64,000 nucleotides of DNA, from positions 192,001 to 256,000 of the forward strand of contig CBDBBI010000010.1 of assembly GCA_965202625.1 (NCBI GenBank). Direction: 5' to 3'. The notes below the pieces were generated by a model that had not been told where the DNA came from, did not search any database, and worked only from the letters and a program-made list of their open reading frames with translations. The stretch is from a bacterium. GTDB taxonomy: Bacteria; UBA8248. Positions 41,400-54,190 of this stretch are shown piece by piece (the first letter of the stretch is position 1; each line of letters opens with the position of its first letter). A program made the translations under genes and the position numbers.

Positions 41400-42434
41400 T
41401 TGAGAAGACGACCTGTCATCGCGATGACCATGGGGGATCCTGCGGGAGTGGGCCCCGAGGTGTGCCTGAAGGCGGCTCAGGAGGTGCGCGTTCAAAAAAA
41501 ATGTGTCCCCGTCATCGTCGGCGACGCGGCGGTTCTTCGCAAACACGCGCGCAGAATGGGAGTTCGGCCCCGGCTCCAGTCGCTCGCAGAGGAGAAGCCG
41601 CCCCCTCCGGAGTGCGAATCCTCGTCCATTTGCGTGATCGACCTCAAAAACGTCGCTCCCGCGCATCGGGTGTTCGGAGAGGTTCTTCCCGAACTCGGCA
41701 GGGCGTCGGGCGAATACGTCGAAAGAGCCGTCTCGATGGTGCGCACCGGATGGGCGGACGCCGTTGCGACCGCACCGATAAGCAAGGAATCCTTGCAGGC
41801 CGGAGGTTATGACTATCCCGGGCATACCGAAATGCTCGCCGCCCTGTGCGGCGGGGGACGGCCCGTCATGATGCTGGCCCACCGCAGAATACGCATCGCC
41901 CACCTATCCACGCATTGCCCTCTTCGGACGGCGGTTCAGCTCGTGAAGAGAAAAAGAATCGTATGCGTGGGGCGGATTTTCGACGAGGCGTTGTGCCTGC
42001 TCGACCGCAAGAGGCCCAGAATCGGGGTTGCGGGCCTGAATCCCCACGCGGGCGAATCCGGCTTGTTCGGAACCGAGGAGGGGGAGGAAATCGCGCCGGC
42101 GGTTTCGGATTTGCGGGCGATGGGCATCGACGCGCATGGGCCCGAGCCGCCGGATACGATATTCGCGAAATTGCGAGGGGGGCACTACGCTGGCGTCGTG
42201 GCCATGTATCACGACCAGGGACACATTCCGGGGAAGCTGGCGTGTTTTCGCTTCAACGCCCGGGGGGAGGGGAGCGTTCGGGGCGTCAACGTCACGCTGG
42301 GCCTGCCCATCATCAGAACGTCGGCGGAACACGGAACGGGGTTTCCCATCGCAGGGCGGGGGGTCGCCGACCCCTCCAGCATGATCGACGCGCTCCTCCT
42401 CGCCGCCCGAATGGTCAAAAATGGCGGGAAATGA
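41400..42434 (+). CDS. pdxA: 4-hydroxythreonine-4-phosphate dehydrogenase (PdxA family)
   Basis: TMGDPAGVGPE, TAPISK, GHTE, GLNPHAGE.G.FG.EE, DT.F, AMYHDQG, NVTLGLP.IRTS..HGT; TTG start after AAGGAG. Confidence 0.93.
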   Translation: MRRRPVIAMTMGDPAGVGPEVCLKAAQEVRVQKKCVPVIVGDAAVLRKHARRMGVRPRLQSLAEEKPPPPECESSSICVIDLKNVAPAHRVFGEVLPELGRASGEYVERAVSMVRTGWADAVATAPISKESLQAGGYDYPGHTEMLAALCGGGRPVMMLAHRRIRIAHLSTHCPLRTAVQLVKRKRIVCVGRIFDEALCLLDRKRPRIGVAGLNPHAGESGLFGTEEGEEIAPAVSDLRAMGIDAHGPEPPDTIFAKLRGGHYAGVVAMYHDQGHIPGKLACFRFNARGEGSVRGVNVTLGLPIIRTSAEHGTGFPIAGRGVADPSSMIDALLLAARMVKNGGK

Positions 42435-42697
42435 ACAGTTTGTGGTGCCGCTCCGCCAGAGCCGTTTCGCTTTTATGCTTCGGTATCTGAGAAATTTTCT
42501 GCGCACGACGCCGTTGTCTGCCCCCACGACGCCCTGTGCGGGCTGAGACGCAGGGCGGCGTGGGCGAGTAGGTTGGCAGGAGATGCGCGGCCGGCTTCGG
42601 CGACGCCAACGGTTTATAAAATCGCACTGGCTGGCCTGATCCGTGATTGACGGTTCTGGCCGTTGTGGCCACTATCCCGTCAAAATGGAGATAGCCC

Positions 42698-42830
42698 ATG
42701 AAAGCGATTTCCGCCCGGCGCGCGCCCGTTGTGGTCGAAAAGCACGGTCGGCCGTTCGTCGTGGTCATGGCCGTCAAGGAACGTGAAAATCTGACGGGGA
42801 ACATCGTCCTTCCCTCACAAGATAAGGAGC
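42698..42830 (+). pseudogene. Phd/YefM-type antitoxin remnant with internal deletion
   Basis: MKAISAR-RAPVVVEKHGRPFVVVMAVKERENL; lacks the usual 'EAKN.FG.L.D' helix between ISAR and the PV.I.KHGRP..VV strand; GGAG RBS; frame runs on into hsdM. Confidence 0.6.
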
Positions 42831-42837
42831 ACGAACC

Positions 42838-44401
<1,564 letters not shown>

Positions 44402-44409
<8 letters not shown>

Positions 44410-45688
44410 TATCTGGCCGAGAATACCTTTAGATTCTGTTGTCCGCTTCCAAGAAGGTCCGGGCATCCTTGCGAAAGACTTTCATCCAGACGGCGTTCCG
44501 CTTGTTAGGCTTGCGGGGCTTGGCGGGTACGAAGTAACGCTCAACAAGTGTAACTATCTTGATCCGTCTTTCGTAGCGAAGAAGTGGGATCACTTCAGGC
44601 TTAAAAAGGGGGACATACTTATTTCAACGAGTGCATCATTTGGAAGACCTGCGGTTGTGGGTGCAGAAGCCGAAGGCGCAATATTTTACACGGGAATAAT
44701 CCGCTTTCGTTCTATGTCTAGTGAGCTAAACGAGGGCTATTTGAAAAGCTTCCTCGGGTCTCGCGCGTTTATGCTTCAGGCCGAAGCACAGGCGTCAGGA
44801 AGTGTAATTAGTCATTTTGGACCTTCGCATTTGCGCCGGATGGAAATCCCACTGCCGCCATTGAAAGAGCAGCAAAATATCGCGTACGTACATTCCACCC
44901 TCGACGACAAGATCGAACTGAACCGGTGGATGAACGAGACGCTGGAGGCGATGGCGCGGGCGATTTTCAAGGACTGGTTCGTGGATTTCGGCCCCACCCG
45001 CGCCAGGATGGAAGGCCGCGAACCCTGCCTCGCCCCCGAAATCTGGAACCTGTTCCCCGACAGGCTGGATGCGGAAGGCAAGCCGGAGGGGTGGGAGCAA
45101 GGAACCCTTGTGGATATTGCGGATTCCCCGAGGCGAGGCGTTAGCCCAGCCGACGTTGCCGAGGACACGCCCTACATCGGCCTAGAGCATATGCCGCGCC
45201 GTTCAATCGCACTCTCGGAGTGGGAAGGCGCGGGGAAAGTTACGAGCAACAAGTCGATCTTTAAAAAGGGGGAATTCCTGTTCGGGAAACTGCGGCCCTA
45301 CTTCCACAAGGTCGGATTTGCGCTATTGGACGGCATTTGTTCGACTGACATCGTTGTTGTGATCCCGCGAGCCCCGAACTGGGGAGCGTTTACTCTCGCC
45401 TGCCTATCTACGGATGAATTCGTGGATTACACGGATCAGACGTCGACCGGCACGAAGATGCCGCGCACGGGCTGGAATACAATGGGGCAATACGAGGTTT
45501 GCATTCCATCTGAGCAGATTGCCCATGCTTTTCAGAGCATCGCGCAGACGCTGTTTGACCGTGTCAGCACGAACATTCATGAATCCCGCACCCTCGCCCA
45601 AACCCGCGACTTTATTCTTCCGAAACTGATGTCCGGCGAAATCCGGCTCCGTGAAGCCGAGAAGATCGCAGGGGAGGCAGTTGCATGA
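44402..45688 (+). CDS. hsdS: Type I RM specificity subunit S
   Basis: Two TRDs, PLPPL.EQ..I...[24 protein letters not shown] linker, C-terminal L...[11 protein letters not shown]. Confidence 0.95.
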
Positions 45689-46482
45689 AGGTAGCGGCAG
45701 GAGAACCGGTGTACCATGAAGGCAGCGCCCCGTGTTCCGGGCTTGGCCTGAAGTGGTCGGGCGACGAGCTTGATGCTGCGATGAATGGCCGCGTGGCTGC
45801 CGTCCTGTTTGATGACGCAGGCAAGGCCGACATCGAAGGCATTCTGACCGGCCTTCCCGAGACCGACTTTGAGCAGGAAGGGCTTCGCCGTATTCTCTCC
45901 GCTCCCGATGATATGGAGGACTGGCGCGTCGGAGAGGCGATCGCCGAGGCCTATCTCACTGATCACCGCGATTGCTGTTTCCCGTGGCCTGCCGGACGAG
46001 ACGAGCGCAAGCGAGGCTCCAGTCTGCCTGGTGCGGATCTTGTCGGCTTCCATGCCGACGAGCAGGGCGATTGCCTGGCATTTGGTGAAGTCAAGACGTC
46101 CTCCGAAGCCAGGTATCCACCGGGGAGCATGTATGGCCGGACAGGGCTCAAGCAACAACTTGGGGACTTGCGAGACAGGGTTTCCATACGCGATGACCTC
46201 GTCTGGTATCTCTTCCATCGTGCCAAGGGGGCCGATTGGTTTGCGCGGTTCATGAAGGCGACAAAGCGCTATCTGGCCAACAAATCGGACGTGCGGCTTT
46301 ACGGGTTTCTTGTCCGTGATGTTCAACCGCAGAAAGATGACGTGCGAGTCCGTGTGGAAAAGCTCGGAAAGGACTGCCCGGAGGGAACGAAAGTTGAACT
46401 TCTTGCGCTGTATCTTCCGAAGGGCCGCATTAAAGGAATCGGCGCCGCCGCTGTGAAGACAAGGACAGGAGCGGGATCATGA
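45685..46482 (+). CDS. PD-(D/E)xK nuclease, HamA (Hachiman A)-like
   Basis: WRVGEAIAEAYL ... LPGADLVGF ... LAFGEVKTS giving the E-D-ExK catalytic pattern; coupled (ATGA overlap) to the downstream Ski2-like helicase. Confidence 0.7.
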   Translation: MKVAAGEPVYHEGSAPCSGLGLKWSGDELDAAMNGRVAAVLFDDAGKADIEGILTGLPETDFEQEGLRRILSAPDDMEDWRVGEAIAEAYLTDHRDCCFPWPAGRDERKRGSSLPGADLVGFHADEQGDCLAFGEVKTSSEARYPPGSMYGRTGLKQQLGDLRDRVSIRDDLVWYLFHRAKGADWFARFMKATKRYLANKSDVRLYGFLVRDVQPQKDDVRVRVEKLGKDCPEGTKVELLALYLPKGRIKGIGAAAVKTRTGAGS

Positions 46483-49400
46483 CTCTGTCCATGAAATCTC
46501 TTGACGATCTCAGAGAACATTGGGCTGTCAGTGCAATCGGCGCGGAGGATATCGCGCGGGCCGAAAGGCTCGTAAACGAAAATCTCGCCCGTCGAGCGGT
46601 TGGCCAGCAGATAGCCTTTTCGTTCTCGCCAGGTGCGAGTGACGACGCCTTTCTGGAGCGCGTTGCGCTGGCCTTTGAAATGGCGGCTATTGAGGGCCTG
46701 GACGAGCTGAGCCGTCCTTCCGGCGAGAACGCGGCATTGCGCGATCAGGCGACTGCCGCGTCATTCCGCGCTTTTGATATTCGCCGTTTGCTGCCGGTCC
46801 CGACCGAAACGCATGACCGGCTTTTCTTTGTCCTGCAACTTTCCGCCCTTGCCTATTGCGGGGATCGCTGGTCGGACCTTCGCCGCTGGTACAAGGAAAA
46901 CGCCGGGGCACTGGCGGCTCCGAGCGTTGCCGAAAGCCTGTGGGACCGCCGCCTTCTGTACCGTTTGTTCCATTGCTGGGTCCGGTTGTTCCGGAAGGAG
47001 GGCTGGGATGATCTTGACCGGATCAGTGAGATCATCGACGGACTGCGCGACGATCAAAAGATATATGAGAAAGAGCGACTTAAGAACGGTTCGCACGCGG
47101 CGAATCGGGCAATCGCCCTGCGGCTTGCGGCGCTTTATCACTGGGCGAAGAGCACCGAGCTTGTTGCGCAATACATGTTGCAGGGGCAGCCGGCAAACCC
47201 GTTTGGCTTGATTGACAAGCACTTCGACGGGGCCATCAAGGCAGCGACGGCCTCAGGCGACGCGCAGCACGAGATTATTCTGCGCTGGTTACATGCAGCC
47301 GCGCGGATCATGATCACGAACTCGCTTTGGTGGGCGACGCGTACCGTCAATTCACGCACAACGCGTTTTGTCCACTCCTTGACGCACCGCAAACACCAGG
47401 CGATGTTCGAGCTCCTGCCGCCTCAGCGAGCGGCCCTTCTTGAGCAGGGGCTGCTCGATCAGGCCAAGACGGCAATCGTGGTCGATATGCCGACCTCGGG
47501 AGGAAAAACCCTCCTCGCGCAATTCCGCATCCTTCAGGCATTGAATCAGTTCAGCGCCGATGGTGGCTGGGTCGCATATGTTGCGCCCACACGCGCCTTG
47601 TCCGCCCAGATCACCCGGCGGCTGCGAAAAGACTTCGAGCCGCTCGGCGTCCGGGTCGAGCAACTAACGGCCGCGGTCGAGGTGGACGCCTTTGAGGAGG
47701 AGCTGCTGGCGAACAAGGAGCAGCCATTCACGGCCACGGTCCGGGTGGACGTCTTTGAGGAGGAGCAGCCGGCGGACAACGATCCGCCATTCGACATTCT
47801 CGTGGCTACACCCGAGAAGCTGTCCCTCGTCATCCGCAACAAGAAGGTCGAGAACCGGCCGCTTGCCCTCGTTGTCATGGACGAAGCACACAATCTCGAA
47901 ACGAAAGACAGAGGGCTCCGCATCGAGTTGTTGCTCGCGACGGTGAAGAGGGATTGTCCGAAGGCGAACTTCCTTCTCCTCATGCCTTATGTAGAAGGAG
48001 CGGAATCCGTAGCGCGGTGGCTGGCACATGATATAAACGCCGGCCAGGCGATCAGCCTTGGAACGACGCCCTGGAAACCCAATGAACGAATTATCGGCCT
48101 TTATAGTGCCGTTGCGGATGACAGCCAGCGCGCTGGATGGCATCTCAAATTCGAGACTTTAACTGCTACTTCGAAAGCTATGCAGCTTCACGGCACTCAC
48201 CGCGTTGGCGGTGTGAAGCCCATCAATGTTCCCAAAAGCAAGGTGCTTATCAAAGGCCGGCAGGAAGGTTTCGGCCTTCAGACGGCGGCCATTGCGACCG
48301 TCATGTCCGCCCGTGGCACGAGCGTCGCCATAGCCAACCATATTCCCACCGTGTGGAACATGGCCGCCAAGGCGGCAGAGTGCTTGTCGGATTTCGATAC
48401 GATTCCGACCGACATCAAGCTCGTTCAGGATTTTCTGCGCACCGAGATCAGCCCCGACTTCCCGCTGATTGCAATGCTGGACAAGGGAGTCGGTGTCCAC
48501 CATGCCGGTCTTTCCGATGACGTGCGCGGCCTTATGGAGTGGCTTGCCGAAACCGGAAGCCTGCGGATGCTTTGTGCGACCACCACGATTGCGCAGGGGA
48601 TCAATTTTCCGGTTTCCTCCGTTTTCCTGCAAACGCACAAATATCGCTACGGGCAGGAAATGTCGCCGCGCGAGTTCTGGAACCTGGCCGGTCGCGCAGG
48701 CCGTATCGATCATGACAGCGTGGGTGTCATTGGCATTGCGGAAGGTTCGAGTCGAGATTCTCTCATCAAGTTCGTCAGCCGCAACACGGGTGCTCTCGTC
48801 TCGCGCCTTGTCTCGTTGCTGGACGATCTTGCCAAGCAAGGCGAATTGGCGAATCTGTCGGAAGTCCTTTGTCAGGAACAATGGGAGGATTTCCGCTGTT
48901 ACATTGCGCATCTTTGGGCGGAGAAAAAGAACCTCGACGCCGTTCTCTCTGAATCTGATCAGCTCCTTCGCCAGACGTTCGGCTATACGTCTCTGCGAAA
49001 CGACCCCGCGCAGCGGGAGAAGGCTGACGCATTGCTGCTTGCGGCCCACGCCTACGCGCGCGAACTTGCCAAGAAGCCTGGCGTCGCCGAACTTGCGGAC
49101 TCGACGGGCTTCTCACCGGAAGGCGTGGGTAAAGCGATGAGCGAACTTAACCAGCTTGAGACCAAACTCACGCCATCGGATTGGGCTCCGGAGAGTCTTT
49201 TCGGAAAGGGCGGCAAAATCGCCGATTTGTATGGCGTCATGTTGAAAGTGCCGCAACTCCAGAAGCAACTTGAGGAGATTGGCGGCCAGGGTTTTGATCG
49301 CACCCGGATTTCCGATATCACGCGCGACTGGGTGAATGGCAAGGGAATTGACGCCATAGCCAGGGAGTACTTCAGCCGGGAAACGGACGACGAAGGGAGA

Positions 49401-49814
49401 ACGGCTGCGATTACGGATGCCTGCCGCGCCATATATCGCGCGATTGTCAATAATGGAACCTGGGGTGTTTCCGCGCTGAGCCGCATTTCCGGTATCGACT
49501 TTGACAGTCTGCCGGAGGCCGAGCGTCGCAGGATCAATGCGCTTCCCGCGATGATTTATCACGGCGTCCGCACGGAAGATGCGGTTTTGATGCGTATGAA
49601 TGCCGCGCCACGCAGCGCGTCTGTAAACCTAGGGAATTTGTATCGCGAGACAATCGGCGAAGGCGATGGTCGCTATTCCGTCGGCCAAGCCCGCCAATTC
49701 CTGAAAGACCTGAGCGATCGCGACTGGCACCGCGCCCGCCCGGAAAGCGCCGCTCTCTCTGGCGACGGATACAAGCGCGTCTGGGAAGTGCTTTCCGGGG
49801 AGAGAAGCACATGA
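46479..49814 (+). CDS. Ski2-like DEAH-box SF2 helicase, HamB (Hachiman B)-like
   Basis: Q motif LPPQ, Walker [50 protein letters not shown]; ~300 aa helical N-terminus; 1111 aa. Confidence 0.85.
47667..47792 (+). repeat. In-frame 63 bp tandem duplication inside the helicase gene
   Basis: [21 protein letters not shown] followed by [21 protein letters not shown]; both DNA units start ACGGCC and end GCCATTC. Confidence 0.85.
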
Positions 49815-49848
49815 CGGCATTTGCCGAAAACGTCAAGGAGGCCGTGTA

Positions 49849-53007
<3,159 letters not shown>

Positions 53008-53163
53008 TGACCAGAAAAGACGAGACATGAGAAGCTCCGTTCCATGCGGACTCTCTTCCAAAAATTTCTGGGACGCAGGGTGTCCCGGTTCCTTGACGCG
53101 GCGGGCCGGGCGGTATGCGCGGAACCCCCTCGGGTCGCATACGCCCTGGACAGCCTGGTCGGC

Positions 53164-53330
53164 TGTAGCCAGACAAAATAATTGCGAATTTGCACAAAAA
53201 TAACCCGGAATGCCTTGTGAAAAAGACCGTTTTTCGGGGCCTAAACGGCTTGTGAAATGGCCGTGCAAGGGTGTTGCAAAGGTCGCGCAAGGCAGAATCC
53301 GCAAGCGTTGATTGCGGCGAGGGCGTCCGC
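53164..53330 (+). repeat. Diverged non-coding repeat, copy B
   Basis: Collinear with 30214-30364 (see copy A). Confidence 0.7.
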
Positions 53331-53361
53331 AGCCTTTGATATCTCCAAGGAAAATTTGGTT

Positions 53362-53400
53362 TGGTTGCGGGGGCAGGATGTGAACCTGTGCCTTCAGGTT
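53362..53400 (-). other. Degenerate 3' half of initiator tRNA-Met (att-site-like remnant)
   Basis: Plus strand TGGTTGCGGGGGCAGGATGTGAACCTGTGCCTTCAGGTT closely matches the reverse complement of a tRNA-fMet 3' end (TGGTTGCGGGGGCAGGATTTGAACCTGCGACCTTCAGGTT); CCA end, acceptor strand and T-arm present, anticodon and 5' half absent. Confidence 0.75.
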
Positions 53401-53434
53401 TGGGGATGGGGGTCTTGCGAGAAGACGCGGCCCC

Positions 53435-54190
53435 TCAAGCGCGGCAGATGGTGAGGAGGTGCACCGCGTTGGCCCCCGCTTTTTTGAGCTCCCGCGCACA
53501 CGCCGAGGCGGTCGAGCCGGTCGTGACCACGTCGTCGATCAAGATGCACGTGGCGGATGCGAGTTTTTCACGCACCCCTCCGGAGCGAACCCTGAATACC
53601 CCGCGCATGTTTCGCCGCCTCTCCCGCCCGGACAATCCCGTTTGCGAGCGGCCTGGCTTCGCGCGTTCCAGCAAGCGCGCGTGCGGCTTGCCCAGGTGCT
53701 CCGCCGTCTGGAGGGAGAGGAGCAGTGCCTGATCGAAGCCCCGGGTTCTCCAGCGCGCGCGGTCGATCGGCACGTGCGTGAGGATGACGTTCGGCGTTTC
53801 TTCACCGACGCCGAATTCGCTTGTCGCCAGATCGGCGAGATGGGGAGCGAGTGCGCGCGCCAGCTTCGTGACGCCCCCGAACTTGAGGAGATGCACCAAC
53901 TCTCGCAAAGAACCCTCAAAGGCGCCGATGGAGCGGACCTTGTCATAGTGAAGGTCGTCTTGTTGGCACGGGGCGCAGACGTGCGCGGGAAAATGGGACA
54001 GGGCGGCCTGGGAGTGAAAGGGTCTGCCGCATCTGGGGCACCAGGGCGGCTTGAAGCATTCGAAGGCGTCCGCGCAAGGGGTGCATATCGCATCGGTACC
54101 GCCGATTTCCATCAGATTCAGGCACAAGGGGCACTTTCTGGGGAGGAGAAAGTCCGTCGCCGCGCGAAGGAGAGAACGCAGGTGGCGCAT
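53435..54190 (-). CDS. comF: ComF family protein (double zinc ribbon + phosphoribosyltransferase)
   Basis: C..C / C..C / C..CG / C..C, HLLKF.G, VP......RGF.Q, Q..L...ER..N..G.F, LIDDVVTTG.T. Confidence 0.92.
   Translation of the reverse strand: MRHLRSLLRAATDFLLPRKCPLCLNLMEIGGTDAICTPCADAFECFKPPWCPRCGRPFHSQAALSHFPAHVCAPCQQDDLHYDKVRSIGAFEGSLRELVHLLKFGGVTKLARALAPHLADLATSEFGVGEETPNVILTHVPIDRARWRTRGFDQALLLSLQTAEHLGKPHARLLERAKPGRSQTGLSGRERRRNMRGVFRVRSGGVREKLASATCILIDDVVTTGSTASACARELKKAGANAVHLLTICRA

Follow-up and report, generated by a model that had tools for sequence, protein, structure and literature searches.

A PDC-M23 nuclease-helicase pair, a probable divergent relative of Hachiman, between hsdS and hsdR of a bacterial type I restriction-modification operon

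PrrC, an anticodon (RNA) nuclease, is held in latent form in the EcoprrI locus. According to the preprint of Payne, Hughes, Fineran and Jackson (2024, bioRxiv 10.1101/2024.01.29.577857), PrrC is found almost exclusively embedded in type I restriction-modification (RM) systems, and the same preprint defines the PDC candidates by their location inside BREX, DISARM or type I RM systems. Hachiman of type I-A, represented by HamAB of ECOR31 (PDB 8VX9; Tuck et al. 2024, PMC12278908), consists of a small PD-(D/E)xK gene directly upstream of the gene for a Ski2-like DEAH helicase of ~1100 amino acids (aa), and responds to DNA damage and free 3′ single-stranded DNA (ssDNA). Here, we analyzed a stretch of 64,000 nucleotides (nt), in the following called the window, from a bacterium of the lineage UBA8248 (assembly GCA_965202625.1, contig CBDBBI010000010.1, positions 192,001 to 256,000 of the forward strand), in which a type I RM operon carries two additional genes, A and B, between hsdS and hsdR. 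By its profile matches this pair is the PADLOC candidate PDC-M23, and its sequences suggest a divergent relative of Hachiman. We consider it likely, with a probability of roughly 0.7, that A and B form an autonomous HamAB-like anti-phage module that is co-transcribed and co-transferred with the RM genes, and in which the helicase would restrain the nuclease until damaged or free-ended DNA is met.

Protein A matched the PADLOC model PDC-M23A (PDLC04529) with E = 5.3e-99 and 328.5 bits, residues 1–257 aligning with positions 1–258 of 265, and protein B matched PDC-M23B (PDLC04531) with E = 0 and 1423 bits, residues 13–1108 aligning with positions 4–1060 of 1060. The pair in the window agrees with PDC-M23 in the two-gene order of A followed by B, in these near end-to-end matches and in its embedding in a type I RM system, and we found no substantive difference. 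Since the PDC class is defined by such embedding in the text of the preprint (10.1101/2024.01.29.577857), the pair is not undescribed: judged by these models, its arrangement had already been catalogued, and the suggestion of an undescribed RM-coupled subtype, made in the original prediction from the DNA sequence, has to be given up. The PADLOC search proposed there as a check had a divided outcome, as B matched the Hachiman model HamB1, A matched no HamA model, and both matched PDC-M23. The main text of the same preprint contains no occurrence of "PDC-M".

Protein B is, from its sequence, clearly a HamB-like Ski2-type helicase of superfamily 2 with intact ATPase motifs. It carries a Walker A motif (MPTSGGKT) and a DEAH motif (VVMDEAHN), in which G341, K343 and T344 as well as D468 and E469 are invariant across 34 B sequences. 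Pfam assigned the domains DEAD and ResIII to B, residues 1–300 being without a Pfam match. PADLOC HamB1 matched B at 1e-47, and the solved HamB (8vx9_B) was recovered at 3.3e-23 with the single sequence and at 3e-30 with the 34-sequence family profile. An hhalign comparison with a canonical HamB from a genome of the same genus reached a probability of 99.7% (E = 1e-25) over residues 161–731, i.e., ~140 residues into the N-terminal domain. As in HamB of Hachiman type I-A, an N-terminal extension of ~300 aa precedes the helicase core (RecA1), which begins at about residue 305 in B and at residue 302 in the solved HamB; in the aligned core, B is ~26–28% identical to canonical HamB. The long helical N-terminus named in the original prediction is a putative feature that would follow from this homology. 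The PDB matches of B comprised Slh1, ASCC3, Brr2, HamB and Hel308, and NCBIfam yielded sub-threshold Hel308-type matches only. A 63-nt tandem duplication lengthens RecA1 of B by 21 residues, placed between helicase motifs, and is absent from the other 33 aligned B proteins.

Protein A contains the motifs VGEAIAE, LPGADLVGF and FGEVKTS. Across 80 diverse members of the A family, with an average column identity of 34%, there is no variation at E84, G116, G121, K137, S139 and Q158, while conservation of D118 and E135 is at least 90%; the catalytic candidates are E84, D118, E135 and K137, in an E/D/ExK pattern. In an AlphaFold2 model of A (mean predicted local distance difference test score, pLDDT, 95.7), the helix-strand-strand order round the catalytic residues fits a PD-(D/E)xK core. 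Four routes lead from A to HamA as the best remote match. A profile of the 80 sequences had HamA (8vx9_A) as its best PDB match, which was weak (E = 0.04); the Pfam family HamA (PF08878) was matched by eight of the 80 members (best E = 3.4e-4) and any other family by at most one member; hhalign of A with one canonical HamA gave E = 5.9e-5 and a probability of 65%, with GE, GxD and GExK in register; and among the feature neighbors in the ESM Atlas, 28 of 30 clusters carried PF08878 (top score 0.98), the query being the homologue P0012, which is 76% identical to A, in place of A itself. The E…D…ExK pattern of HamA from Hachiman type I-A is intact in A, but none of the curated HamA models (Pfam PF08878 and the hidden Markov models of PADLOC) recognizes A. 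As a positive control, a canonical HamA of the same genus scored 1e-83 on PADLOC HamA1. These remote tests, which agree and none of which is strong, point to A as a divergent PD-(D/E)xK protein distantly related to HamA.

Because A misses the curated HamA models and the weaker tests favor HamA, we file the pair as a PDC-M23 member and divergent Hachiman relative, not as a Hachiman member in the strict sense. The original prediction had described a Hachiman-like pair made up of a Ski2-like DEAH helicase and a small protein with the motifs GE…E, PGAD and GEVK that seemed too divergent for a canonical DUF1837 HamA. Each of these points is borne out: the three motifs are present as listed above, the helicase is supported by HamB1, 8vx9_B and hhalign, all best remote matches of A are HamA, and A lies below both the Pfam and the PADLOC models of that family.

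The features of the operon are as follows, all on the plus strand.

42838..44409, + strand: hsdM, type I methyltransferase subunit, 523 aa (Pfam N6_Mtase 5.5e-106, HsdM_N 1.7e-24; PADLOC MTase_I 3e-204)
44402..45688, + strand: hsdS, specificity subunit, 428 aa (Pfam Methylase_S 1.4e-15; PADLOC Specificity_I 4.9e-83)
45685..46482, + strand: gene A, PDC-M23A, predicted nuclease of divergent HamA-like PD-(D/E)xK type, 265 aa (PADLOC PDC-M23A 5.3e-99)
46479..49814, + strand: gene B, PDC-M23B, HamB-like Ski2/Hel308-type DEAH helicase, 1111 aa (PADLOC PDC-M23B E = 0, 1423 bits)
47659..47784, + strand: in-frame tandem duplication in gene B, 2 x 63 nt, copies 81–84% alike
49811..49849, + strand: mini open reading frame (mini-ORF) of 12 codons, probably what is left of the N-terminal part of a different hsdR allele (resembles truncated HsdR N-termini in relatives)
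49849..53007, + strand: hsdR, restriction/translocase subunit, 1052 aa (Pfam HSDR_N, SWI2_SNF2, T1R_D3-like, T1RH-like_C 2.1e-123; PADLOC REase_I E = 0)

The predicted gene order hsdM-hsdS-A-B-hsdR, with the pair nested between hsdS and hsdR, is confirmed by the ORF coordinates, which give overlaps of 8 nt between hsdM and hsdS, 4 nt between hsdS and A and 4 nt between A and B, followed by the mini-ORF. Short overlaps of this kind are commonplace between operon genes and do not point to a special coupling. Around the A-B insert of 4.1 kb, HsdM, HsdS and HsdR are canonical, full length and co-oriented according to their Pfam and PADLOC coverage, with residues 1–426 of HsdS covered by the 446-position Specificity_I model. 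A simple scan of positions 42300–53600 found no promoter-like site (2.7 expected) and nine terminator-like sites (12.5 expected), the latter being no excess over chance. Given this lack of an internal promoter-like or terminator-like excess, A and B are probably transcribed together with the hsd genes. Among the sequencing runs listed, none of RNA contained the locus. No Rfam family was matched in positions 42000–54000, and a search for repeats found none other than the 63-nt duplication in gene B. The operon is flanked by pdxA-like and comF-like genes amid housekeeping genes; there is no integrase beside it and no tRNA in the window, and the operon is not an obvious integrative island.

To place the pair in a broader context, 82 other loci were compared, namely the best 80 of at least 309 confirmed metagenome matches, one locus from a Bryobacterales genome, the single one recovered by a one-protein scan of genome contigs, and one from the same genus. 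The metagenome scan used the closer A-family alignment, and neighboring genes were labeled by tblastn with the proteins of the window and by Pfam. A is followed by B in 76 of the 82 loci, and the remaining six have at most 344 nt after A; the A-then-B linkage is strict wherever the DNA continues. Pairwise distances of A and of B are correlated (Spearman 0.72, 47 loci). The A family is large, with 1537 clusters when grouped at 90% identity and 489 representatives when the threshold is 50%. Among related genomes the pair is patchy, occurring in 2 of 101 including this one, and the plasmid and phage collections gave no match to A at E ≤ 1e-5.

Both flanks were readable in 40 loci. The pair lies between the type I M/S and R genes, on the same strand, in 25 of them. 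Four more are associated with RM genes in another arrangement: the pair follows hsdR in L001, closes an R-M-S operon in L022, comes behind an orphan fragment of hsdS in L004 and stands beside a divergent RM in L083. The other 11 (9 distinct) have no RM genes nearby, their settings being transposases, a resolvase, WYL regulators, imuA-imuB-dnaE2 or ordinary genes. The other 42 loci were readable upstream only (29), downstream only (5) or too short (8); hsdS is directly upstream of the pair in 12 of the 29, and the pair also ends an R-M-S operon in L058. The frequency of homologues within hsd operons, which had been proposed as a check, is therefore high among these loci; the pair often lies inside type I RM operons, which belong to several lineages, but does not have to. 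Additional cargo is frequent in the embedded loci and includes YhcG, TIR, SLFN/AlbA_2, Mrr_cat, AbiEi/AbiEii, KilA-N and PRTase-CE with a reverse transcriptase.

Only one other member of the genus has the pair (L004; genome G016, contig C30, 7088–11801, minus strand), with A 65% and B ~75% identical to the proteins of the window. There, it lies behind a 218-aa hsdS fragment with neither hsdM nor hsdR nearby, which is an independent acquisition whose host RM is gone. The pair also stands beside an hsdS cut by an insertion sequence (IS), with hsdM missing, in L006, and beside an hsdR scar alone in L013. In L035 (10795–14054), an embedded locus of the order GmrSD-M-S-A-B-R that is otherwise intact, two ORFs (870 and 219 aa) take the place of B, probably through a frameshift. 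Three pairs from activated sludge lie outside RM operons: those at L029 4559–10006 and L061 14158–19605 lie a short way upstream of a mutagenesis cassette of the imuA-imuB-dnaE2 type, and that at L028 6428–8484 is downstream of two divergently oriented WYL-domain regulators. A pair of PRTase-CE/wHTH (winged helix-turn-helix) and reverse transcriptase genes adjoins A-B in L013 (14150–16717), L060 (7782–10346) and L071 (2–2344), one of them inside the hsdS-hsdR slot. Some neighboring HsdS proteins have an N-terminal Polbeta/NTP_transf_2 nucleotidyltransferase domain (L001, 3208–4836 and 5333–6481; L105, 7552–9315). The same L001 has a PDC-M02B-like gene (2e-118) in its S-R slot, the A-B pair following after hsdR.

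The G+C content at third codon positions (GC3) is 0.84 in hsdM, 0.62 in hsdS, 0.63 in A, 0.68 in B and 0.82 in hsdR. This drop at hsdS and rise at hsdR shows that hsdS, A and B were imported as one block. In 15 loci, the HsdR proteins encoded downstream fall into five clusters at 45% identity, some being 21–33% identical to HsdR of the window, whereas A is 53–79% identical across loci in which HsdR diverges. Thus, the cassette moved between type I lineages.

The right-hand end of the block is marked by the mini-ORF. Its start codon shares bases with the stop codon of B (ATGA), as does its stop codon with the start codon of hsdR (TAATG), and it contains the Shine-Dalgarno sequence of hsdR (AAGGAGG, 49835–49841), which ends 7 nt ahead of that start codon. 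Many relatives have the start of hsdR at the stop codon of B or a few bases from it, and the product begins, for example, with MANFAESHVEEA (L008) or MPKFAESHVEDA (L018); truncated HsdR N-termini resembling the mini-ORF follow B in L013, where no RM is left, and in L048, L060 and L074. On the strength of these two observations, the mini-ORF is best read as the fossil of the 5′ end of a donor hsdR, which would mark the right-hand crossover. A selected coupling device was also considered and was rejected in favor of such a recombination scar. The mini-ORF could still let ribosomes pass on to hsdR, which has its own strong Shine-Dalgarno sequence. Together, the compositional steps at both ends of the block and the fossil HsdR N-terminus suggest that the block arrived by homologous recombination within conserved hsd genes, between the 3′ end of hsdM (or hsdS) and the 5′ end of hsdR, as the mechanism of swapping.

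The interval between hsdS and hsdR is a swappable cargo site. Five hsd operons of the same genus, with HsdM 65–71% and HsdR 54–68% identical to those of the window, have other genes there: a 279-aa protein together with an M78/RmrA-like protein, an Mrr_cat protein, an unknown 260-aa protein, DUF2806, and SIR2 (PDC-S65). A sixth operon of the genus (L106; genome G017, contig C112, 4009–11634, minus strand) carries a canonical HamA, matching PADLOC HamA1 at 1e-83, and a 1136-aa HamB directly downstream of an hsdR that is 57–60% identical to that of the window. The genome analyzed here contains, on a different contig, one more hsd operon that looks intact (L107; G000 contig C7, 3211–9896, minus strand; HsdM 80.5% and HsdR 54% identical), the slot of which holds a 216-aa gene of no known family with a GC3 of 0.57. 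With other cargo of this interval (PDC/HEC candidates, Mrr, SIR2, TIR, YhcG, AbiE, RT-PRTase), A-B shares the position, a GC3 that is low relative to hsdM and hsdR, and swapping between sister genomes, but its proteins are unrelated to theirs; the landing site is common, the mechanism is not.

A mechanism for the pair can be proposed on the template of HamAB from ECOR31, following the account of that system in Tuck et al. (PMC12278908). By analogy, B would scan DNA and keep A inactive in the meantime. An encounter of B with DNA damage or free ends in the course of an infection would lead its ATPase to release the PD-(D/E)xK nuclease, and the released A would degrade DNA indiscriminately, leading to abortive infection. 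The adjacency to an RM enzyme would then provide co-transfer and co-expression, i.e., two defense layers in one mobile unit, with no obligatory mechanistic dependence between them.

Several points weigh against such an autonomous, Hachiman-like module. Protein A matched no Pfam family, no NCBIfam family and no PADLOC HamA model at E ≤ 0.01, and a search of the whole genome with PF08878 (DUF1837/HamA; cut-off 25 bits; the "class" and "phylum" HamA searches gave the same 51 genomes) found no match. The comparison of A with a 33-sequence HamA family by hhalign was weak (E = 0.009, probability 4.5%). The term "PDC-M23" has no occurrence in the full texts searched and we found no experimental test of this candidate; the one study found in which PDCs were tested, on cold seeps, chose candidates other than PDC-M23 (PMC12881386). 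Embedding in about two thirds of the related loci is high, and this rate, taken from the most similar loci, may not hold family-wide. In the 15-locus subset, the distances of B and HsdR are as correlated (0.63) as those of A and B (0.60). The high embedding and the B-to-R correlation leave room for a long co-inheritance with RM, and hence for some functional dependence.

One form of such a dependence, put forward in the original prediction and regarded by us as unlikely, is a fail-safe role in which the pair is triggered by DNA ends made by HsdR or is released when a phage anti-restriction protein of the Ocr/ArdA type disables HsdMSR. The second variant corresponds to the way in which EcoprrI keeps PrrC latent. 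The 25 embedded loci among the 40 with two readable flanks, the 12 of 29 upstream-only loci with hsdS next to the pair, the tightly overlapping junctions and the B-to-R correlation over 15 loci would all be in line with it. In addition, HsdR cleavage with end-processing could supply the trigger described for Hachiman in PMC12278908, free 3′ ssDNA or damage, and PrrC is named as a precedent in the preprint of Payne et al. (10.1101/2024.01.29.577857). Like PrrC in the EcoprrI locus, A-B is located in the hsdS-hsdR interval and co-oriented with the hsd genes. However, the 11 loci without RM genes nearby, set among transposons, a resolvase, WYL regulators, imuA-imuB-dnaE2 or housekeeping genes, differ from the near-exclusive embedding of PrrC, and whereas PrrC is held by the RM complex, there is no sign here of a contact between A-B and HsdMSR. 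The pair also persists beside decayed RM systems (the hsdS fragment of L004, the IS-cut hsdS without hsdM of L006, the hsdR scar of L013), occupies other positions, following hsdR in L001 and closing R-M-S operons in L022 and L058, and stands beside at least five HsdR lineages, some of them only 21–33% identical to HsdR of the window. Further arguments against a fail-safe are that cargo genes of many unrelated kinds are found in this slot and that the mini-ORF is best read as a recombination scar and no coupling device. No fusion of A to an RM subunit was seen among the 10 N-terminally extended A homologues, none of which had any Pfam match.

A related proposal, to which we give slightly less credence still, is that PDC-M23 is a branch of Hachiman specialized on type I RM, which reads HsdR-made ends or stalled translocation complexes, or senses the loss of HsdMSR activity to anti-restriction proteins. 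The embedding of about two-thirds of the loci and the co-divergence of B and R within lineages leave room for it. If it were true, the role of an embedded pair would be to enhance restriction or to serve as its backup, not to work independently.

That the pair has no role in defense, and is either a helicase of the Hel308/Ski2 type for repair or recombination, accompanied by a nuclease and brought into the operon by chance on mobile DNA, or a decaying passenger that is nonfunctional here, fits the data poorly and is the least probable reading, since the best solved-structure matches of B being housekeeping helicases (Slh1, ASCC3, Brr2, Hel308), its sub-threshold Hel308-type NCBIfam matches, the 21-residue duplication in its RecA1, its split into two ORFs in L035 and the imuA-imuB-dnaE2 genes adjacent in L029 and L061 are opposed by the intact frames of both genes with all catalytic and ATPase motifs conserved, the patchy distribution in 2 of 101 related genomes, neighbors that are overwhelmingly defense genes (RM, TIR, SIR2, YhcG, Mrr, AbiE, reverse transcriptase with PRTase-CE, GmrSD), and an A family well conserved across phyla, with its 1537 clusters and 489 representatives.

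As a system the locus is nothing new in kind. It represents a clean and intact instance of a catalogued candidate, and one that would link PDC-M23 to the Hachiman family. It shows how the cargo of the hsd slot moves, and its five-gene operon offers a compact construct for studying the cooperation of embedded defenses with their host RM.

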